A DNA stretch of 60,745 bases from Nitrospirota bacterium (GCA_009773185.1 WPIF01000017.1:1-60745), one strand, 5' to 3'; counted from the stretch's first letter, positions 16,737 to 53,797 are shown. The notes: generated from the sequence alone by a model not told the origin. A program made the numbers and translations.

Positions 16737-16858
16737 GCAGGATATAGCATCCTCGCTCATTCTCGGTCTTCGACCTCCGAGGTTTTGCCCGCTTTTATTA
16801 TTAGAAATTTTACTGTATGAATTGCAGGCAAAAAAACCGCTCAAATGCCATATCCTGC
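16737..16858. repeat. MITE-like repeat element copy (GCAGGATAT...ATATCCTGC termini)
   Basis: Shares 'CGCTCATTCTCGG..TCCGAGGTTTTGCC...GGCAAAAAAACCGCTCAAA' with copies at 27021, 31996, 33340 and 48511. Has terminal inverted repeats. Confidence 0.5.
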
Positions 16859-16896
16859 ATTTCATTTATAACTATAGTGATAGGGAGGGTTAATTT

Positions 16897-17541
16897 ATGA
16901 AAGTCAAGGTTGTAACCCGTATACTTGAAGCCAATGAAAGGATTGCAGCGGATAATCGCAGGATATTTGATGATTCAGGGGTATATGTTATAAATCTCAT
17001 GAGCGCACCCGGCGCAGGGAAGACATCTCTGCTTGAAAGAACCATAAAAGAGCTGAATAAAAAGTTAAAAGTGGCAGTTATTGAAGGAGATATTGCAGGC
17101 ACTCAGGATGCAGAAAGAATTGGAAACCTCGGGGTCCCGGTTATTCAAATAAATACAGGGGGCGCTTGCCATCTTGATGCAAATATGATTAATGAAGTCC
17201 TGGGAGAGCTTCCCCTGAAGGAGATTGAGCTTCTTTTTATTGAGAACGTAGGGAACCTTGTCTGCCCTGCTGAGTTTAATGTTGGCGAGGATATGAAGGT
17301 TATGCTTTTGAGCATAACAGAGGGAGATGACAAACCACTGAAATATCCGTTGATGTTTCAGGAATCATCAGCCTTAATCCTGAACAAGATTGACCTTTTG
17401 CAGCATACGAATGTAAGTATAGACAAGATAAAAAAGGATGCAATGTCTTTAAGCCCTTCAATAAAAATATTTGAGGTTTCATGCAGGACAGGCGAGGGGA
17501 TATCGGAGTGGACTGATTGGCTGGTAAAGAAGGTGAAATGA
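16897..17541 (+). CDS. hypB: hydrogenase maturation GTPase HypB
   Basis: 214 aa. P-loop 'GAPGAGKTSLL'. CobW/HypB family. Confidence 0.85.
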   Translation: MKVKVVTRILEANERIAADNRRIFDDSGVYVINLMSAPGAGKTSLLERTIKELNKKLKVAVIEGDIAGTQDAERIGNLGVPVIQINTGGACHLDANMINEVLGELPLKEIELLFIENVGNLVCPAEFNVGEDMKVMLLSITEGDDKPLKYPLMFQESSALILNKIDLLQHTNVSIDKIKKDAMSLSPSIKIFEVSCRTGEGISEWTDWLVKKVK

Positions 17542-19922
17542 ACCGTGTTCTCATCAACATCAAGGGCCTTGTGCAGGGCGTTGGTTTCAGGCCGTTTGTT
17601 TATAACCTTGCGAAATCCCTTAACCTGAAAGGCAGTGTAGCCAATACTGCTGATGGAGTAACTATTGATGTGGAGGGCGATGATGTAACTTTTTTTATAG
17701 AGATGCTTTCAAAAGAAGCGCCGCCATTATCAAAAATAATTAATGTTGATATCACGCCAATGCCTTTTTGCGGATACGAAGGCTTTGAAATACTTAAAAG
17801 CAAAGACAATGGAAGTTCTACGCTTATTTCTCCGGATATCTCTGTATGTGATGACTGCCTCAAAGAGATGTTTGATAAAACCGACAGGCGCTATCTCTAT
17901 CCGTTTATAAACTGCACAAACTGCGGGCCGAGGTACACGATTACAAATGCAGTCCCGTATGACAGGCAAAACACCACGATGTCTGTTTTCAGGATGTGCC
18001 CTGAATGCGAGGCTGAATACAATAATCCCGGGAACAGGAGATTTCATGCTCAGCCTAATGCGTGTCCGGTCTGCGGGCCGGAAGTTAAATTAGTTGTCAG
18101 CCATCAGCTGTCAGCTGTCAGCCAGGACCAAAATCCAATAGAAACTGCGATACGGCTATTAAAAGATGGGAAAATTATAGCAGTAAAAGGGCTTGGCGGT
18201 TTTCATATTGCATGCGATGCGAAAAATAAAGATGCGGTAGAAAGACTGAGGCTTGCAAAAAGAAAAAGCAACAAGCCTTTTGCGCTTATGGCGCCTGATA
18301 TCGGGACAATAGAAAGATACTGTGAGGTATCAGAGGAGGAAAAGAAGATTTTAAATTCCAATAAAAGGCCTGTTGTTCTTTTGAGGAAGAGGGCGGATGC
18401 TGATTCTTTGCCTGAGGCAGTAAGTCCTGATAACCAGTATCTTGGTTTTATGCTTCCCTACACTCCGCTGCATTATCTGTTGTTTTATTATTCCTTATCA
18501 GGGCTGACTTACCCCCCCATCCCCCCCTTGGTAAGGGGGGGCGAGAGGGGGGTGGCTAATTTCGATGCCCTTATCATGACGAGCGGAAATCTTTCTGAGG
18601 AACCGATTGTTATTGATAATGATGAGACAATCTCAAAATTATCCGATATAGCAGATGCATTTTTAATCCATAACAGGGATATTTTCATGCGCACTGATGA
18701 TTCGGTTGTCAGAAGTCACTTTTTAAGGCATAAGGCAAAACCGCTGTTTATCCGCCGTTCGCGCGGATATGCGCCTGACCCTATATTTTTAAATGACGAT
18801 GGCTCTGAGGTGCTTGGGTGCGGGGCTGACATAAAAAACACATTTACGCTTACAAAGGGCAGTTATGCAATCCCGAGCCAGCATATAGGAGACATGGAAA
18901 ATTATGAGACAGTAAAGTTTTTTGAAGAGAGCCTCAGGAATCTGAAAGCTGTTTACAGGGTCGAGCCTGTTGCCGTAGCTTATGACCTGCATCCTAATTA
19001 TTTTTCAACGCAATGGGCATTAGCGCAGGGCGCAGAGGGCAAAGGGCAAAGAGTTGAAACTTATGGCATTCAGCATCATTATGCGCATATAGCGTCTGTG
19101 ATGGCAGAAAACGGCATTAAGAAAAAGGTCATGGGCGTTGCATTTGACGGTACGGGTTACGGCACTGATGGTAATCTCTGGGGCAGCGAGTTCTTAATTG
19201 CTGACCCGGAGGATTTTAAGAGAGCGGGGCATTTTAAATACATCCCATTGCCGGGTGGCGAGATGGCAGTCAGAGATCCCTGGAGGGTGGCAGTGAGTTA
19301 TATAAAAGATATTGCAGGGGATGAGGCTATGCATTATCTGGGAGCCATAGGGTTTATTGAAAAATATGGCAAAGATAACCTGAATAATATTCTGAAAATA
19401 ATTGATAACCGGGAATTTTCACCTCTGTCATCAAGTGCTGGGAGGCTTTTCGATGCAGTTTCGGCAATGCTTGGAATATGTGATAGGAATACATTTGAGG
19501 GTGAGGCTGCAATGGCGCTTGAATCTTATACAACGGATGAAATAGATGATGATTACCCTGTGGATGTTATATTCAAGGAGAAGATAATAGTTGATTTTTC
19601 TTTGACGATGCTGCGGCTGATAGAGGATATAGCATGCGGGACTGCCAGGGGTATTATCGCTGCAAAGTTTCATAATACTATCGTGACGGTTATCGAAAGA
19701 GTCATCCTGAAGCTAAACACAATTTATAAATTATATGATGCTGTTTTAAGCGGAGGAGTTTTTCAGAATATGTATCTTCTTAAAAATACAATGAATAGGC
19801 TCAGGTCCGCAGGGATTAATGTCTATATCAACGAGAAGGTGCCGTCGAATGATGCAGGCATATCACTTGGACAGGCGTATATAATAAGGGAGAGGCTAAA
19901 GTCAGAAAAGTGGAAGGCGTAA
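17538..19922 (+). CDS. hypF: carbamoyltransferase HypF
   Basis: Acylphosphatase-like N-terminus (VQGVGFRPF), two Zn-finger pairs (CDDC...CTNCGPRY; CPEC...CPVCGP), YrdC-like 'KGLGGFH' and a Kae1-like C-terminus. ATGA overlap with hypB. Confidence 0.9.
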   Translation: MNRVLINIKGLVQGVGFRPFVYNLAKSLNLKGSVANTADGVTIDVEGDDVTFFIEMLSKEAPPLSKIINVDITPMPFCGYEGFEILKSKDNGSSTLISPDISVCDDCLKEMFDKTDRRYLYPFINCTNCGPRYTITNAVPYDRQNTTMSVFRMCPECEAEYNNPGNRRFHAQPNACPVCGPEVKLVVSHQLSAVSQDQNPIETAIRLLKDGKIIAVKGLGGFHIACDAKNKDAVERLRLAKRKSNKPFALMAPDIGTIERYCEVSEEEKKILNSNKRPVVLLRKRADADSLPEAVSPDNQYLGFMLPYTPLHYLLFYYSLSGLTYPPIPPLVRGGERGVANFDALIMTSGNLSEEPIVIDNDETISKLSDIADAFLIHNRDIFMRTDDSVVRSHFLRHKAKPLFIRRSRGYAPDPIFLNDDGSEVLGCGADIKNTFTLTKGSYAIPSQHIGDMENYETVKFFEESLRNLKAVYRVEPVAVAYDLHPNYFSTQWALAQGAEGKGQRVETYGIQHHYAHIASVMAENGIKKKVMGVAFDGTGYGTDGNLWGSEFLIADPEDFKRAGHFKYIPLPGGEMAVRDPWRVAVSYIKDIAGDEAMHYLGAIGFIEKYGKDNLNNILKIIDNREFSPLSSSAGRLFDAVSAMLGICDRNTFEGEAAMALESYTTDEIDDDYPVDVIFKEKIIVDFSLTMLRLIEDIACGTARGIIAAKFHNTIVTVIERVILKLNTIYKLYDAVLSGGVFQNMYLLKNTMNRLRSAGINVYINEKVPSNDAGISLGQAYIIRERLKSEKWKA
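18512..18556. repeat. G/C-rich hairpin element inserted in frame in hypF
   Basis: CCCCCCCTTGGTAAGGGGGGG encodes ...PPIPPLVRGGERGV... This is about 20 extra residues relative to E. coli HypF between LPYTPLHxLL and LxMTSGNLS. The same hairpin occurs intergenically at 32061 and 33386. Confidence 0.45.
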
Positions 19923-27020: not shown

Positions 27021-27132
27021 GCAGGACAGTATTTTCGCTCATTCTCGCTCCGCTCCGAGGATTTTGCCTCTTGATTTTTATTAATTTGCTGTCTGATTAT
27101 CGGCAAAATAAACCACTCAAACACTATCCTGC
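27021..27132. repeat. MITE-like repeat element copy
   Basis: GGCAGGACAG TATTTTCGCTCATTCTCGCTCCGCTCCGAGGATTTTGCC...CGGCAAAATAAACCACTCAAACACTATCCTGCC, with GGCAGG/CCTGCC termini. Confidence 0.5.
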
Positions 27133-31995: not shown

Positions 31996-32150
31996 GCAGG
32001 GAAAAATGTTTTCGCTCATTCTCGCTTCGCTCCGAGGTATTTTGCCTCACCCCCCTTTAGTTCCCCCCTTGGTAAGGGGGGAATTTAAGAGGGGTGGGTT
32101 TAGGAGTATCGGCAAAATAAAACCGCTCAAACACAATTCCCTGCCTTTTT
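31996..32150. repeat. MITE-like repeat element copy (longest, contains the CCCCCCTTGGTAAGGGGGG hairpin)
   Basis: GGCAGGGAAAAATGTTTTCGCTCATTCTCGCTTCGCTCCGAGGTATTTTGCC...TATCGGCAAAATAAAACCGCTCAAACACAATTCCCTGCC. Confidence 0.5.
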
Positions 32151-33313: not shown

Positions 33314-33339
33314 TTTAATTAAGACAAAAGCGGGTGGAA

Positions 33340-33480
33340 TAGTCTTTGAGCGGTTTTATTTTGCCGATATTCCACCCCTCTATGTCCCCCCTTGCCAAGG
33401 GGGGAATTTAAAGGGGGTAGAGGCAAAATTCCTCGGAGGGCAACGCCCGAGAATGAGCGAAAAGATTATTTTACCCGCTT
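33340..33480. repeat. MITE-like repeat element copy (inverted orientation)
   Basis: Reverse-complement homolog of 31996-32150, including the CCCCCCTTGCCAAGGGGGG hairpin and GAGAATGAGCGAAAA. Confidence 0.5.
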
Positions 33481-48510: not shown

Positions 48511-48662
48511 GAGGTAACATTTTTTCGCTCATTCCCGGGCTGAAGCAGCGACTCCTCCGCCCCAGGCGGATTCGCCGAGGCGAAGAGGAATTTTGCCTCT
48601 TCATCCCTTATTATTTTAAGGAATATCGGCAAAATAAAACCGTTCAAAAACATTACCGCCTG
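48511..48662. repeat. MITE-like repeat element copy (divergent)
   Basis: TTTTTCGCTCATTCCCGGG...GGAATTTTGCCTCTTC...ATATCGGCAAAATAAAACCGTTCAAAAACATTACCGCC. Confidence 0.45.
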
Positions 48663-48684: not shown

Positions 48685-50325
48685 ATGAAAGTTGTTACTG
48701 CAGAAGAGATGAGAGAGATTGACAGAAAGACCATGAGAAATTACGGGATATCCGGCTCTGTTCTTATGGAAAGGGCAGGGCTTGCCGTTGCCGGGAAGAT
48801 CAAAGAACTTTTTGAAAAACAAAAGGTCATTGTGCTTTCGGGCGGCGGGAACAATGGCGGCGACGGGATTGTTGTTGCAAGGAATCTTAGCGAGTGGGGA
48901 TGGAATGTGAAGGTAATCCTGCTTTCTAAAGAAAATAAACTTAGCCGGGACTGCCTTGAACAATACAGAATAGCAAAAAAGACAGGTGTGCCGATAGAGT
49001 TCAGGACAGAGATTACGGGAAAAGATACTCACAGTGCGATTATTGTTGATGCAATCTTCGGGACAGGCCTGAGTAAGGATATAACAGGAAAAATAGCTGA
49101 TGTTATCTCATTTTTGAACAACTCAGAATCGCCTATCGTTTCGGTTGATATTCCTTCAGGTATTTCTTCTGATACGGGTCAGGTTATGGGCGAAGCGGTA
49201 AGCGCAGATTATACGGTTACATTCGGCCTTCCAAAGAGAGGGCATTTTCTTTATCCCGGTGCGGAATATACAGGTAAGCTTTTCATTGAGGATATAGGAT
49301 TTCCTGAAGAACTTATTCACTCAGAAAAACTTAATGTAGAGTTTCTTGAAAAAATGGATGTGTCCCTTTTAATTCCGGAGAGGCGGCGATATTCACATAA
49401 GGGAGACTATGGCCATGTGCTTGTTATTGCCGGTTCCAGAGGAAAGACAGGCGCTGCATTCATGTGTGCAAAGGCATGCCTGAGGGCAGGGGCAGGGCTT
49501 GTAACAATAGGGGTTCCTGAAACATTGATGGATGTCTTTCAATCAAGGGTTACAGAGGAGATGACGTTGCCTCTGCCAGACAGAGGGGATGGAACTTTGT
49601 CATCAAAGGCTTCTGATAAAATACTGGCTTTTATCGCAGATAAGGCTGATGTGCTTGCAATAGGGCCTGGAATCTCGGTAACCGATGACACCCAAAAACT
49701 TATAACCGCGCTTGTATTGAATTCTGCAGCGCCTATGGTGATGGATGCAGATGCGATAAATGCGCTTGAAGGCAATAAGTATGTCCTCAGAAGAGCAAAG
49801 GCTCCGGTAATAGTTACGCCGCACATAGGAGAGATGGCAAGACTGCTGCAAGGGTCAAAGGGTTCATCCTTCGCAGTTCATCCTTCGCAGCGCTGCGGAG
49901 AATGGATGCTACGGAGAATGGATCAAAGGGTCTCGCCTCAGGCGAGTCGCCGAGGAGACAAAGGGTCAAGAGAAATAGAGATAGACAGAATTAGTACAGC
50001 GATAAACTTTGCGAAGGAAACAGGAACATATCTTGTGCTTAAGGGAGCGCCGACGGTTATTGCTGAGCCTGAAGGAAGCGCATTTATTAACTCAACTGGA
50101 AATCCCGGCATGGCGAGTGCGGGGGTGGGAGATGTCCTTACAGGAATGATTGCAGGATTGCTTGGCCAGGGATTAAATCCGTTAGAGGCGTCAATACTTG
50201 GGGTTTTCATGCATGGGCTGGCAGGAGATATAGCTGCAAACAAACAGGGTGAGCACTCATTGATTGCATCAGATATGATAAATGCGTTGCCGGATGCTTT
50301 TCTTTCATTGAAAAAAATCAGATAG
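48685..50325 (+). CDS. nnr: bifunctional NAD(P)H-hydrate repair enzyme Nnr (epimerase + ADP-dependent dehydratase)
   Basis: YjeF-N 'GGGNNGGDG', YjeF-C 'GHVLVIAGSRGKTGAA' and 'LKGAPTVIA'. About 35 extra residues (…SSFAVHPSQRCGEWMLRRMDQRVSPQASRRGDKGS…) come from a repeat insertion. Confidence 0.8.
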   Translation: MKVVTAEEMREIDRKTMRNYGISGSVLMERAGLAVAGKIKELFEKQKVIVLSGGGNNGGDGIVVARNLSEWGWNVKVILLSKENKLSRDCLEQYRIAKKTGVPIEFRTEITGKDTHSAIIVDAIFGTGLSKDITGKIADVISFLNNSESPIVSVDIPSGISSDTGQVMGEAVSADYTVTFGLPKRGHFLYPGAEYTGKLFIEDIGFPEELIHSEKLNVEFLEKMDVSLLIPERRRYSHKGDYGHVLVIAGSRGKTGAAFMCAKACLRAGAGLVTIGVPETLMDVFQSRVTEEMTLPLPDRGDGTLSSKASDKILAFIADKADVLAIGPGISVTDDTQKLITALVLNSAAPMVMDADAINALEGNKYVLRRAKAPVIVTPHIGEMARLLQGSKGSSFAVHPSQRCGEWMLRRMDQRVSPQASRRGDKGSREIEIDRISTAINFAKETGTYLVLKGAPTVIAEPEGSAFINSTGNPGMASAGVGDVLTGMIAGLLGQGLNPLEASILGVFMHGLAGDIAANKQGEHSLIASDMINALPDAFLSLKKIR

Positions 50326-50396
50326 ATAATGAAGAAAGTCAAAATAAAACCGCTCAGATACTATATTCCTTTCTCTGGTTAATTTTTTAAGTAAAC

Positions 50397-51074
50397 ATGG
50401 AAATACTCATATTCCCTAAAATATTCGGCTCTCATGTAACTGCTTTTTTCACCGGCAAATCTCCGGGCGCTGACCTTGACAGGATTTCAAATATCGCCCC
50501 GGTCAGCAAAGAAAAGATTTATCTGCCAATACAAAAACATACGGATAAGGTGCTTTTGCTGAATTCTGATTTTAGCCCAAAGATAGCAGATGCAGTTATA
50601 ACGAAAAATAAAGGCATATTGATAAGCGTTCAGGTTGCAGATTGTGTGCCTGTGCTTCTATGCGATATGAAAAAATCCGTAATCGGCGCAGTCCATGCAG
50701 GCTGGAGGGGCACAGCAGCAGAGATATTGAAGAAAACTATAAATTCGATGTGTGATAAATTCAGTTCTGTACCCGAAGATATTAAGATAGCGATTGGGCT
50801 AAGCATAAGATTGTGCTGTTATCATGTGGGGTATGATGTGCTTGAAGCTGTTATAAAAGCAACCGGCAGCGGTGACTATCATAATCAAAAAACTGATGCA
50901 TACTGTCTTGACCTTGCAGCTGCAAACAAATATCAGGCAATGTCAGCCGGAATACCCGAAAAGAATATATGGATGTCTCAGGAATGCACTTATTGCAACC
51001 CGGACAGGTTCTATTCTTACAGGTATGCAAAAGGTTCTACTGGAAGGCAGTGCGGGTTTATTGGTATCCTTTAA
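50397..51074 (+). CDS. pgeF: peptidoglycan editing factor PgeF (YfiH/DUF152 laccase-domain protein)
   Basis: 225 aa. 'ADCVPVLLCD', 'AVHAGWRG' and 'CTYC' are DUF152 signatures. Confidence 0.75.
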   Translation: MEILIFPKIFGSHVTAFFTGKSPGADLDRISNIAPVSKEKIYLPIQKHTDKVLLLNSDFSPKIADAVITKNKGILISVQVADCVPVLLCDMKKSVIGAVHAGWRGTAAEILKKTINSMCDKFSSVPEDIKIAIGLSIRLCCYHVGYDVLEAVIKATGSGDYHNQKTDAYCLDLAAANKYQAMSAGIPEKNIWMSQECTYCNPDRFYSYRYAKGSTGRQCGFIGIL

Positions 51075-51076
51075 GC

Positions 51077-51516
51077 TAATGAAATTCTTAAGCAGAAGCG
51101 CTGAAGAAACACAGATAATAGGTTTCAGTCTTGGTAAATTGCTTAAAGCACAGGGCGTTGTATGCCTTTACGGCGAACTGGGCGCAGGCAAGACAACATT
51201 TGTTAAGGGAATTGCGCAGGCGTTGGGAATTCCTGAGAGTAATGTCACGAGCGCAAGTTTTACAATAATTGTTGAATATGACAACAAAATCCCTCTCTAT
51301 CACATAGACCTTTACAGGATTGAAAAGGAATCTGATATTGATGGGGCAGGTATCTGGGATTATATTTACAGCGAAGGCATTACTGTTATTGAATGGGCTG
51401 AGCGGCTCGGGAAGGTGCCTGACGATTTTATAAAGGTAAAATTTGCTATTATAGATGAAGTAACAAGGGATATAACAATTGAGGGTATAGATGAAAAAGA
51501 TTGGAATTATATGTAA
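51077..51516 (+). CDS. tsaE: tRNA threonylcarbamoyladenosine biosynthesis protein TsaE
   Basis: 146 aa from ATG 51077. 'LYGELGAGKTTFVKGI' P-loop. The longer ORF from 50872 overlaps pgeF and was rejected. Confidence 0.75.
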
Positions 51517-52342
51517 GTCAGGAAGGCCTGAGCCGCTGGAGATATTGAAAGACCTTCTTCCATGGTTAGGCAAAAAAGGGCTTGAAACATTTTTGGACAT
51601 TGAAACAGCCCCGATGCTCAATGCGAAAGGCTATTCGCGTTCAGAGATTCCAAAGATTGCTGAAGTGATAATTGTTTTGGGTGGTGACGGCACAATGCTC
51701 AATGTTGCCAGGCTTGTCTGTGAAAAAGGCATCCCTATCCTTGGAGTCAATCTGGGAGGTCTCGGGTTTATAACAGAGGTGCAAATAGAAGAACTCCATG
51801 ATGCGATGGAAAAAGTCCTTTCGGGAGAGTGTTCATCTGAAGAACGAATAATGCTCACAGCTTATATCCATAGGCATGGAGAAAGGATAGCGGAATATAC
51901 TGTGCTTAATGATGTTGTAATTAATAAAGGTGCGCTTGCAAGGATTATAGACCTTGAAACTTACATTAATAAGACATATGTAACGACCTTTAAGTCAGAC
52001 GGGCTTATAGTGTCAACACCAACCGGCTCGACAGCATACTCATTGTCAGCAGGAGGGCCTGTTCTGTATCCAACGCTTGACAGTATTGTTGTAACGCCTA
52101 TATGCCCTCATACCCTTACTAACAGGCCTATTGTTCTTCCTGATGATGTCTTGATTGAGATAGTGCTTAAATCCCAGAGCGAGGATGTTTTTCTAACGCT
52201 TGACGGCCAGGTGGGATTTTCTTTGAGGAAGAATGATGTTGTGGAAATTAAAAGGTCACCTTTCAGGACAAAACTCCTCATCCCGTTTGAAAGGGATTTT
52301 TTTCAGGTGCTAAGGACAAAGCTTAAATGGGGAGAGAGGTAG
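51491..52342 (+). CDS. nadK: NAD(+) kinase
   Basis: 283 aa. 'VLGGDGTML', 'NDVVINKG' and 'STPTGSTAYSLSAGGP'. Confidence 0.85.
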   Translation: MKKIGIICKSGRPEPLEILKDLLPWLGKKGLETFLDIETAPMLNAKGYSRSEIPKIAEVIIVLGGDGTMLNVARLVCEKGIPILGVNLGGLGFITEVQIEELHDAMEKVLSGECSSEERIMLTAYIHRHGERIAEYTVLNDVVINKGALARIIDLETYINKTYVTTFKSDGLIVSTPTGSTAYSLSAGGPVLYPTLDSIVVTPICPHTLTNRPIVLPDDVLIEIVLKSQSEDVFLTLDGQVGFSLRKNDVVEIKRSPFRTKLLIPFERDFFQVLRTKLKWGER

Positions 52343-52370
52343 AGAAGTTGTCATCTTACAGATATTAACT

Positions 52371-53177
52371 ATGAGCCAAAAGCAGATGAGCAATATTGCA
52401 GAAGATATAAAAGACATCCTCAGGTTTTATCAGGCGATGGGAATTGAGAGTGTGCCAATAAAGATTGTGCAGAAATACAAAAGTGCGGTCTCCTCGGCGA
52501 CTCGCCTGAGGCGAGAAGCGCGGAAGCCGGATCCCGGAGGGCCGGCAGTGGTTAGTGAAGATATTAAAGCTGACACCTATCACCCAACATCTAAGGCTTC
52601 ACCTGTTGCACGCCTGTCCACGGCTGAAAAGGCTGTTGCACTGAAGGCATTGAGAGAAGAGATTGGCGACTGCACAAGGTGCAAGCTTTCAAAGGGAAGG
52701 ACAAATCTTGTCTTTGGTGAAGGGAATATTGATGCAGAAATAATGTTTATAGGCGAGGGGCCCGGCAAGGAAGAGGACTTGCAGGGAAGGCCATTTGTCG
52801 GAGATGCAGGCCAGTTATTGACAAAGCTCATAGAAAAAATGGGTTTTAAGAGAGAGGCTGTCTATATAGGCAATATAGTGAAATGCAGGCCTCCCTTGAA
52901 CAGGGCTCCTGAAGATGATGAAATTAATTCGTGCGTTTCTTTCATTAAAAGGCAGGCAGAGATAATCTCTCCGAAGGTTATAATTGCGCTGGGCCGCATC
53001 TCTGCGCAGACACTGCTTGCTTCAAAGATTACTATAAGCAGGCTGAGGGGAAGGTTCTACGAATATTGCGGTATACCGCTTATGCCGACATTTCATCCTG
53101 CATATCTTCTGAGGAACCCAAAGGATAAAAGGCTTGTATGGGAAGATGTTCAAAAGGTTTTGGAAAGATTGAAATGA
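52371..53177 (+). CDS. family 4 uracil-DNA glycosylase with N-terminal extension
   Basis: 'CTRCKLSKGRTNLVFGEGN', 'FIGEGPGKEEDLQGRPFVGDAGQLL' and 'FHPAYLLRNP'. About 100 aa of N-extension carries a palindromic 29-nt insert. Confidence 0.75.
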   Translation: MSQKQMSNIAEDIKDILRFYQAMGIESVPIKIVQKYKSAVSSATRLRREARKPDPGGPAVVSEDIKADTYHPTSKASPVARLSTAEKAVALKALREEIGDCTRCKLSKGRTNLVFGEGNIDAEIMFIGEGPGKEEDLQGRPFVGDAGQLLTKLIEKMGFKREAVYIGNIVKCRPPLNRAPEDDEINSCVSFIKRQAEIISPKVIIALGRISAQTLLASKITISRLRGRFYEYCGIPLMPTFHPAYLLRNPKDKRLVWEDVQKVLERLK

Positions 53178-53797
53178 AAAGATTTGTTTTTGCAATCAGC
53201 GGTGCAAGCGGGCCGATTATAGGGATACGAATTCTAAGGGAATTGCTCAAGACCTCTCAGGTTCATCTGATTATATCATCGCAATCATTCTCTATTATAA
53301 AGGAAGAGACAGGGATAGACTGGACAATTAAAAAAGGGTCAAGGGGTCAAAGGGGCAAAGGGTCAAAGTTGACAGAAGATAAGATTAGAAAACATTTTAA
53401 AACAGACAGGCTTTTCTTTCATGAGGATACAGATATGTATGCACCTATTGCCAGTGGTTCATTCAAGACCGATGGAATGCTTGTTGTGCCATGTTCGATG
53501 AAAACGCTTTCCGGCATTGCCAATGGTTATGCGAACAATCTTGTTGAAAGGGCTGCTGATGTAACGATAAAAGAGGGAAGGGCGTTGCTTCTTTCTCCGA
53601 GAGAGATGCCTTTCAGCGCAATTCATCTTGAAAACATGCTCAAGCTTGCCATGATAGGAGTTAAGATTGCGCCTCCAGTGCCTGCGTTTTATCACAAACC
53701 TAGAAATATAGATGACATAGTTGATTTTATGGCGGGAAAGATTCTTGATGCTATGGGCATTGAGCATGAGATTTTTAAGAGATGGGGAGGCAAATGA
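53174..53797 (+). CDS. ubiX: flavin prenyltransferase UbiX
   Basis: 'MKRFVFAISGASGPIIGIRIL' and 'GSFKTDGMLVVPCSMKTLSGIANG'. About 18-aa G-rich insert (KKGSRGQRGKGSK). Confidence 0.8.
   Translation: MKRFVFAISGASGPIIGIRILRELLKTSQVHLIISSQSFSIIKEETGIDWTIKKGSRGQRGKGSKLTEDKIRKHFKTDRLFFHEDTDMYAPIASGSFKTDGMLVVPCSMKTLSGIANGYANNLVERAADVTIKEGRALLLSPREMPFSAIHLENMLKLAMIGVKIAPPVPAFYHKPRNIDDIVDFMAGKILDAMGIEHEIFKRWGGK

Follow-up and report, generated by a model that had tools for sequence, protein, structure and literature searches.

In a window of 60,745 nucleotides from a groundwater Nitrospirota bacterium (GCA_009773185.1 WPIF01000017.1:1-60745; the window is this whole stretch of DNA), two protein-coding genes carry the same 27-nt element, here named A, in opposite orientations. 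One copy resides in nnr, which encodes a bifunctional NAD(P)H-hydrate repair enzyme, and the other in udg, which encodes a family-4 uracil-DNA glycosylase (UDG). Copies of A in the window and in related genomes probably constitute a family of very small, non-coding, GC-rich foldback elements that are inserted precisely at the dinucleotide step T^C without target-site duplication (TSD) and are tolerated in protein loops. The element forms a dispersed repeat family, each gain resolved by comparison measures exactly 27 nt and lacks a TSD, the insertion keeps one phase relative to its target, the inserts are tolerated in loops, and elements are nested within one another.

A repeat search of the window returned the inverted pair as 49931-49959 and 52488-52516, 29 nt that are 100% complementary. 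Taken as a 30-mer, the sequence GTCTCGCCTCAGGCGAGTCGCCGAGGAGAC (49930-49959, +) agrees with 52488-52517 (-) at all positions but one, and 100 dinucleotide-preserving shuffles yielded no comparable match. The inverted pair reported in an earlier note on this DNA is thus real, with two corrections. The note placed the mismatch at the central base of the hairpin, whereas the copies are identical over 29 nt and only the outermost, flanking base differs; and it described an element of 29-30 nt, whereas single 27-nt gaps against orthologous empty sites define the inserted unit as 27 nt, CTCGCCTCAGGCGAGTCGCCGAGGAGA, in a register that is ambiguous by 1 nt. The identity extends to 29 nt because the two extra bases are the T and the C of the shared T^C target. 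Copy 1 lies within the 549-codon open reading frame (ORF) of nnr and copy 2 within the 268-codon ORF of udg; both ORFs are open and 27 nt equals nine codons, so the reading frame is kept in both, as had been proposed. The features of this region are collected in Table 1.

Table 1. Element copies, host genes and flanking repeats in the nnr-ubiX region (positions in the window)
Feature	Position	Strand	Remarks
Diverged A-family member (CTCCGCCCCAGGCGGAT TCGCCGAGGCGA)	48555..48583	+	In an intergenic repeat resembling a MITE (miniature inverted-repeat transposable element), just upstream of nnr; stem differs by compensatory changes
nnr, host of A copy 1	48685..50325	+	YjeF_N + Carb_kinase (PF03853 + PF01256)
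Octamer tandem repeat (GGGTCAAA-type), left part of nnr loop	49849..49863	+	Host of B and A; also at this site in L004, L001, L028 and L035
Outer element B, left half (TCATCCTTCGCAGT)	49864..49877	+	L004 has an uninterrupted 30-nt B here
Inner element B, TCATCCTTCGCAGCGCTGCGGAGAATGGAT	49878..49907	+	30 nt, at the centre of outer B; 30-nt gap against L004
Outer element B, right half (GCTACGGAGAATGGAT)	49908..49923	+	Comparison with L004
Tandem-repeat unit CAAAGGGT between B and A	49924..49931	+	Ends in the T that precedes the A insertion point (position -1)
Element A copy 1	49932..49958	+	CTCGCCTCAGGCGAGTCGCCGAGGAGA; translated in the frame of nnr as (V)SPQASRRG(D); 49933-49959 equally possible
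Tandem repeat resuming (CAAAGGGTCAA) directly after A	49959..49969	+	Sequence comparison
udg, host of A copy 2	52371..53177	+	PF03167 in syntenic orthologues
Octamer unit AAGTGCGG next to A copy 2 in udg	52481..52488	+	Empty site reads AAGTGCGGAAGCGCGGAAGCC (L028)
Element A copy 2	52489..52515	-	27 nt, in frame in the variable linker of family-4 UDG; adds VSSATRLRR
Octamer units AAGCGCGG AAGCC, other flank of the udg copy	52516..52528	+	Alignment to relatives
In-frame octamer tandem repeat AAAGGGTC x4.5 in ubiX	53333..53368	+	Empty in the window, filled by A in L028 (single 27-nt gap)

Filled and empty sites in nnr, udg and ubiX

We compared the syntenic nnr-pgeF-tsaE-nadK-udg-ubiX loci of the window and five relatives (L and P labels denote loci and proteins of relatives retrieved for comparison). 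The window, L028, L035 and L037 form a very close group, with L004 and L001 as outgroups. First, the udg linker of L028, L035 and L037 reads ...AAAAGTGC(G/A)GAAGCGCGGAAGCC..., and the window has 27 extra bases following AAGTGCG. Alignment of the window with L028 and with L035 opens one internal gap of 27 nt in each case, and by sequence comparison L037 is likewise without the 27 nt. A tandem repeat likewise surrounds the udg copy (AAGTGCGG / A / AAGCGCGG AAGCC), a feature absent from the earlier note. Second, ubiX is the reverse of udg: L028 is filled within its (AAAGGGTC)n repeat and the window is empty, in near-identical surrounding DNA. Third, A is absent from nnr of L004, L028, L035 and L037, and alignment of the window with L004 opens one 30-nt gap, that of a second element (B) described below, and one gap of exactly 27 nt. 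Filled and empty sites at udg, ubiX and nnr have equal numbers of flanking repeat units and differ by 27 nt, so that no duplication occurred on insertion; the gains of A are recent, precise and without TSD. Orthologues without A simply lack the 27 nt, and the pattern that the earlier note had named as evidence against mobility, identical inserts in orthologues of genomes otherwise free of the element, was not found.

The window Nnr is 100% identical to P0001, a protein of a metagenome-assembled genome (MAG) labelled 'Nitrospirae bacterium', whose recorded N-terminus is 3 residues shorter than the window ORF counted from its most upstream start; an exact-protein look-up with the nnr and udg ORFs taken from their most upstream start codons gave no match. 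All close Nnr homologues come from Thermodesulfovibrionales/Nitrospirota MAGs. Divergence across the nnr-ubiX block is uneven among the four close genomes, with NadK 98.6-99.6%, PgeF 84-89% and Nnr ~80-82% identical, which suggests recombination or very different constraints inside one 5-kb block.

The nnr insert is a nested composite. Across 120 aligned orthologues, the Nnr segment between GEMARLL and EIExDRI is very variable in length, some proteins adding nothing and the window having the longest version (~37 residues), which bears out the earlier view that this stretch is extra relative to the usual spacing. The extra residues are translated simple DNA repeats, either heptamers and octamers (EVRSQKSEV, GQRVKGS) or a C-run/G-run palindrome (NPPLPPFAKGGRGGI). 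What had been described as tandem duplications, TTCATCCTTCGCAG x2 and GAGAATGGAT x2, is instead one 30-nt B nested in another. L004 has a single 30-nt B (TCATCCTTCGCAGTGCTACGGAGAATGGAT) within a (GGGTCARA)n repeat; in the window, the outer B is split at its exact centre by the inner B, giving the appearance of 14-nt and 16-nt duplications. Two independent tandem duplications were rejected because the identical 60-nt B-in-B composite recurs at L045, L053 and L069 with different flanks. From left to right, the loop is made of tandem repeat, left half of the outer B, inner B, right half of the outer B, one repeat unit, A, and tandem repeat again.

An AlphaFold2 model of Nnr has a mean pLDDT (predicted local distance difference test) of 90.3, and its sole segment below 50, residues 392-421, is the insert, placed between two confident helices. 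The nnr insert is the only disordered loop of the modelled protein, in line with the surface-loop prediction that the earlier note had put forward for checking. A is present in 2 of the 120 nnr orthologues, in non-sister lineages and in different frames, and reflects independent gain or transfer: in the distant orthologue P0014, the peptide LASGESPRR is A read in another frame. The nnr loop of P0005 carries B, also in another frame.

Anatomy, target and hosts of element A

Two parts make up element A, a 6-bp hairpin (CTCGCC-TCA-GGCGAG) and, behind it, a tail of 12 nt that is constant, TCGCCGAGGAGA; as single-stranded DNA the element is predicted to fold with -8.1 kcal/mol (z = -2.35). Its layout a-a'-a-a' (TCGCC / GGCGA / TCGCC / GGAGA) allows two folds: the 5' 6-bp hairpin with a tail, or one long imperfect hairpin built of two abutting imperfect terminal inverted repeats (TIRs). 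The long, whole-element hairpin is the DNA minimum-free-energy structure, whereas the compensatory changes better fit the 5' 6-bp hairpin. A tail-anchored search (TCGCCGAGGAGA, at most one mismatch, across 670 kb of loci) found the tail behind CTCGCC/GGCGAG, TCCGCC/GGCGGA, CCCGCC/GGCGGG, GTCGCC/GGCGAC and CCCGC...GCGGG hairpins and in a few decayed copies. The stems differ and are mostly still complementary (CT/AG, TC/GA, CC/GG, GT/AC), with few broken. A pair count over four stem variants gave 100% paired positions and two covarying pairs, for a variant set that was pre-selected for pairing.

Variation extends beyond the stem. L027 holds a 27-nt A variant in a (CTGACTT)n repeat, and foldback relatives of 47-48 nt have the tail inverted at both ends (TCTCCTCRGCGA ... 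TCGCCGAGGAGA); judged by its sequence, A looks like the minimal version of this foldback family, with its two imperfect terminal repeats abutting. Rfam models returned no family above noise in the nnr-ubiX region, and hence none for A. The sole weak match, to 'Clostridiales-2 RNA' at 48550-48616 (-) with 21.5 bits against a gathering threshold of 58.6 (E = 0.13), lies over a hairpin-rich MITE-like repeat and is almost certainly due to chance.

A scan of one genome per species for exact matches to CTCGCCTNAGGCGAGTCGCCGAGGAG (25 specified bases) added 30 copies to those of the window; they occupy 29 loci and belong to 13 other genomes, which come from many independent projects and have 1-5 loci each. 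The A-bearing genomes are MAGs labelled Thermodesulfovibrionales, Nitrospirae or Nitrospiraceae, bar one bin labelled Nitrospinota, and the viral contigs scanned contained no copy.

The insertion point is nearly invariant. The +1 base is C in 32 of 32 copies, the +2 base A in 25 of 32 and the -1 base T in 24 of 32. In 25 of the 32, the 7-8 nt to the left and right of A match at six or more positions, and A lies exactly between two tandem-repeat units, in phase at T^C. These units are diverse (CAAGATT, CAGGATT, CAGGGGT, CAAGGGGT, CAAAGGGT, CAAGTTT, CAAAGTGT and a CGCGCTT type shared by the udg copy and L013), and the orientation of A is fixed relative to the host repeat unit. At two loci, L007 and L017, the element occurs in A-unit-A tandems, and in L014 it is nested in an A-like element. 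The remaining copies reside in MITE-like repeats (L016, L018, L024-L026); in L024, two copies of a ~160-nt repeat with inverted ends similar to TGTCATTCCGGCTTG each carry A. These two copies (L024 1500-2610) are direct and bracket small overlapping ORFs of 137 aa and 85 aa, a pair resembling a toxin-antitoxin module; in the second copy of A, two mutations break the stem. The earlier note had proposed a second, distinct small mobile or recombinogenic element active inside ORFs. Mobility and residence in ORFs stand, given the empty sites and the dispersal; independence from other repeats does not, as A sits in phase in 7-8-nt tandem repeats.

The matching flanks invite a conventional explanation, in which A is a TIR-only MITE moved by a DDE transposase with a 7-8-bp TSD, and the tandem repeats are excision footprints accumulated at a preferred target. 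The repeat period of 7-8 nt does equal common TSD lengths, the agreement of the flanks at six or more positions in 25 of 32 copies is what a TSD would leave, terminal inverted repeats are present in A as well as in its 47-48-nt relatives, and the CA..T shape common to the units could be a target preference. We nevertheless regard this explanation as highly improbable, given that a filled site has as many repeat units as an empty one and is longer by exactly 27 nt. The repeat is already present at udg, ubiX and nnr in all close relatives and outgroups, so the duplication was not made by the insertion; and since empty sites already hold both units, the flanking 7-8-nt direct repeats are unlikely to be TSDs. 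Furthermore, the footprint reading requires several extra losses on a star-like tree, the MITE-embedded copies of A have no flanking direct repeat, and the repeat units recur at many loci instead of being locus-specific.

The in-phase position of A within tandem repeats, observed nearly always and without TSD, could also be produced with no dedicated enzyme at all, by replication slippage, template switching or ectopic gene conversion between tandem-repeat tracts: a stalled nascent strand would invade an A-containing tract, copy it and return. A GGGTCAAA-type unit is common to many recipient tracts, the A-unit-A arrangements of L007 and L017 resemble slippage with a 35-nt period, and hairpins and short repeats are generally known to promote polymerase stalling. 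However, there are at least eight flanking unit types with a junction homology of only 2-4 nt, yet 32 of 32 junctions fall at the same nucleotide, and the MITE-borne copies (L016, L018, L024-L026) lack repeat-unit homology. In addition, exact 27-mers are kept across genomes whose proteins differ by 20-35%, and the tail is constant while the stems vary and mostly stay paired, which argues for sequence-specific recognition and not for passive copying. On this evidence, we consider such copying between tracts unlikely, though deserving of attention.

With respect to genes, ~15 of 33 A copies are internal to long ORFs, ~7 fall within codons 1-25 or in the 5' leader, and ~9 are intergenic. Pfam confirmed as hosts a MurD-like ligase, at one and the same site in two genomes, Dxs, HemC, AroC with two tandem copies, MoeA, CarA, a His_Phos_1 phosphatase and, near the protein middle, a major facilitator superfamily (MFS) transporter, together with UbiX, Nnr and UDG. 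In Dxs the element falls between Transket_pyr and Transketolase_C, and in CarA in an inter-domain linker. Within at least 11 different genes every sense frame is used, the internal copies dividing into six in frame 0, one in frame 1, six in frame 2 and two antisense. All three sense frames are open (LASGESPRR, SPQASRRG, RLRRVAEE), and one antisense frame has a stop. Because A is read in all sense frames and in antisense, the peptide is irrelevant and conservation acts at the nucleotide level. In 25 of 32 copies (p = 0.002), the top strand of A coincides with the strand that is locally rich in G, for the most part the coding one.

Could A be a conserved functional motif that does not move but is inherited vertically, as a site for protein binding, an RNA hairpin or a peptide module? 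The perfect conservation of the 27-mer across species, the stable predicted hairpin and the orientation bias to the coding strand point that way. We give this idea very little credence, considering that A is present or absent between genomes whose NadK proteins are 99% identical, that it occurs in unrelated genes, 5' regions, intergenic DNA and MITE-like repeats, that it is translated in all three sense frames as well as antisense, and that it matches no Rfam family. The reading that we prefer, of a mobile foldback family, would explain its tolerance as follows. The nine-codon length and the open sense frames would allow insertions of A to persist where tandem repeats already lie, and the permissive sites would be disordered loops and inter-domain linkers of housekeeping proteins, which would gain nine arbitrary residues. 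The nnr loop would have been built up by tandem repeat, B, nested B and A, and the udg linker would have received one recent A.

Element B and other repeats

Element B is 30 nt long, unrelated to A in sequence, and was found at 42 metagenome loci. It behaves like A in having T at -1 (44 of 44 copies), in using GGGT^CAAA sites and in being nested. About 20 copies lie in (GGGTCAAA)n repeats at GGGT^CAAA, the same point as A, ~6 in (TACGAAT)n-type repeats; B or B-like hairpins hold at least five, nested at their centre. Twelve copies stem from one intergenic locus of an apparently different, GC-richer lineage, and a thirteenth, L073, looks like a diverged version of that locus. At this soil-lineage locus (L047, L048, L049, L054, L055, L058, L065, L067, L068; for example L055 3845-3874), an exact B follows just past a stop codon, beside a GC hairpin; the locus gave no Rfam match and no tRNA or tmRNA, and its organism looks different from Nitrospirota and apparently GC-richer.

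Other tiny hairpin inserts in tandem repeats indicate more families of the same kind: CTCCGCCTCAGGCGGAT occurs in (CACCGATT)n and GTCCCGACCAAGTCGGGAT in (GAATTTT)n, and a string of A-like modules directly follows a B copy (L004 7900-7960, L008 3493-3520 and L051 5250-5310 are the loci of these inserts and of the string).

Elsewhere in the window, a hypF-like ORF of 801 codons (17517-19922, +) stays open through three repeat insertions (18095-18122, 18511-18554 and 19030-19051), namely (TGTCAGC)x4 encoding SHQLSAVSQ, a 44-nt C-run/G-run palindrome encoding TYPPIPPLVRGGERGV, and a (GGGCAAAG)-type repeat. The palindrome family is also intergenic at 32052 and 33375 and occurs in frame in many Nnr orthologues. 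Composite intergenic MITE-like repeats lie at 48513-48660, 32000-32148, 33336-33470, 16753-16862, 27023-27047 and 50326-50375, so that nnr is bracketed on both sides; their modules are TTTTCGCTCATTCYCGG, the C/G-run palindrome and GGAATATCGGCAAAATAAAACCGCTCAAA, and one copy contains the A-like variant at 48555-48583. Between 41100 and 58100, six paralogous genes sharing the conserved caspase-like Peptidase_C14 core YYSGHGAP...LDSCFSG (PF00656 in syntenic relatives) are interleaved with the nnr-ubiX housekeeping block, and some relatives' copies have ankyrin repeats.

Mechanism and comparison with known systems

Insertions of A fall at T^C(A), in nearly every case where two units of a pre-existing 7-8-nt repeat meet, and for some copies in MITE-like repeats. 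By analogy with known systems, we tentatively suggest that an enzyme acting in trans may move A, recognising both a short target and the folded single strand with its hairpin and conserved tail, in a 'peel-and-paste' manner similar to that of HUH/Y1 enzymes. Precise gain without TSD, the fixed T^C point and orientation, the constant tail behind varying stems, and nesting are hallmarks of folded-single-strand handling as in IS200/IS605 elements and in repetitive extragenic palindromic (REP) elements with their REP-associated tyrosine transposases (RAYTs) (PMC6006769, PMC3116915). A RAYT-like Y1_Tnp gene is present in one A-bearing genome (L014 60-725, 221 aa, PF01797, E = 8.7e-15), the only one in the 670 kb of loci. 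It is bracketed, within L014 1-745, by perfect inverted copies of a 17-nt sequence, ATAGGGACAGCGACTAT, and not by A, and for this reason a link between this gene and A was rejected. Gene and 17-mer look like a REPtron-like unit whose sequence is unrelated to A; L010 and L062 each contain a single copy of ATAGGGACAGCGACTAT that deviates by 2 mismatches.

Several points weigh against a mobile family of this kind or against its enzymatic transfer. No enzyme is linked to A, the lone RAYT-like gene having another flanking repeat and lying ~7 kb from the nearest A copy. Both orientations of A occur 2.5 kb apart in one replichore, and this speaks against a strict preference for one strand with respect to replication. 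The uniformity of the scanned copies is built in by the exact-match search to 25 bases, and copy number is low, at 1-5 exact copies per genome. The covariation count is indicative, being partly circular for variants chosen for pairing. The polarity of gain and loss is a matter of parsimony only, the four close relatives being nearly star-like. The G-rich-strand bias is not decisive, as it is not separable from gene orientation.

At 27-30 nt, such elements offer no room for a coding sequence and scarcely exceed a protein footprint, yet near-identical genomes differ cleanly by their gain and loss. Selfish DNA can in this manner lengthen protein loops of uncultured bacteria by steps of 9-10 residues. 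In this clade, stretches derived from repeats are present in nnr, udg, ubiX, hypF, dxs, aroC and further genes; they affect orthologue alignment, gene calling and structure prediction, and should not be taken for functional motifs.

Short GC-rich mobile sequences are known from AT-richer mitochondrial genomes. The mobile GC clusters of yeast mitochondria and the double-hairpin elements of Allomyces mitochondria lie intergenically or in frame, and their mobility is inferred from presence and absence. They differ from A in being organellar, in their sequences and sizes, and in having no known tie to 7-8-nt tandem repeats. Among bacterial repeats, Rickettsia palindromic elements (RPE; ~105-146 bp; Ogata et al. 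2000, as listed in PMC3184786) resemble A as palindromic selfish repeats that lie in frame in genes, in permissive surface regions, and add residues without evident function. They are, however, four to five times larger, belong to an obligate intracellular alphaproteobacterium and are not tied to tandem repeats; in-frame insertion into ORFs thus fits the RPE class, but the size of 27 nt and the taxon place A outside it. With MITEs, which typically exceed 100 bp and lie between target-site duplications (PMC3184786), A shares a non-autonomous, foldback character and TIR-like ends, clearer in the 47-48-nt relatives, but not the class itself, as its filled and empty sites differ by exactly 27 nt without duplication.

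REP elements are extragenic, usually number tens to hundreds of copies, and bear a GTAG or CGTC tag (PMC3733652). With the REP/REPIN-RAYT and IS200/IS605 systems A has in common a GC-rich hairpin next to a conserved single-stranded motif, the lack of TSD and a specific insertion point (PMC3116915, PMC6006769, PMC3733652). A falls outside the REP/REPIN-RAYT class, as it carries neither tag, is often intragenic (~15 of 33 copies in genes) and brackets no RAYT gene in the 670 kb of loci, whereas its hairpin with conserved tail, absence of TSD and T^C target are features of the IS200/IS605 type. A CRISPR repeat was rejected as an identity for A, which is solitary or spaced by one 8-nt unit, forms no arrays and has no Rfam CRISPR-DR match. 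Our search of the literature on small repeats in Thermodesulfovibrio, Nitrospirae and Thermodesulfovibrionales found no description of A or B.

The closest analogue is provided by the small dispersed repeats (SDR1-8) of cyanobacteria, set beside A here by their descriptions and not by sequence. Very small mobile repeats are said to have been first described in Nostoc, in 2008; in that year Elhai et al. reportedly characterised SDR1-8 of heterocyst-forming cyanobacteria as hairpins of 21-27 nt with covarying stems, lying in tandem heptamers or minitransposons and nested in one another. A and B share the tiny size (27-30 nt against 21-27 nt), the dispersal, the hairpin, the residence in tandem repeats and minitransposons and the nesting, and they have orthologous empty sites at three loci. 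Both systems also display precise insertion at a fixed point of a short target, since SDR5 inserts between nt 3 and 4 of HIP1 (PMC4390886), and A at T^C. One survey of cyanobacteria reports no SDR-like repeats outside Nostocaceae (PMC5861425). A differs in its occurrence in Nitrospirota, in using octamer as well as heptamer hosts and in its low copy number per genome; the lengths of A and B are multiples of three, and about half of the copies lie in frame within housekeeping genes. What is new for A is therefore the phylum, the codon-multiple lengths and the frequent in-frame residence in essential genes, the kind itself being already known.

A broader and admittedly speculative idea, which we think unlikely as it stands, is that the tandem repeats, the 27- and 30-nt hairpin elements and the MITE-like repeats are all products of one unrecognised DNA-insertion system common in kind to Nostocaceae and Thermodesulfovibrionales. 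Such a system would recognise a folded single strand and T^C, write codon-multiple cassettes that end in protein loops, and perhaps generate or maintain the tandem repeats. If so, the enzyme could be sought among genes common to both unrelated lineages showing the syndrome. A second, remote lineage that combines hairpin elements, 7-8-nt tandem repeats and minitransposons opens the way to a comparative search for the machinery that moves them.

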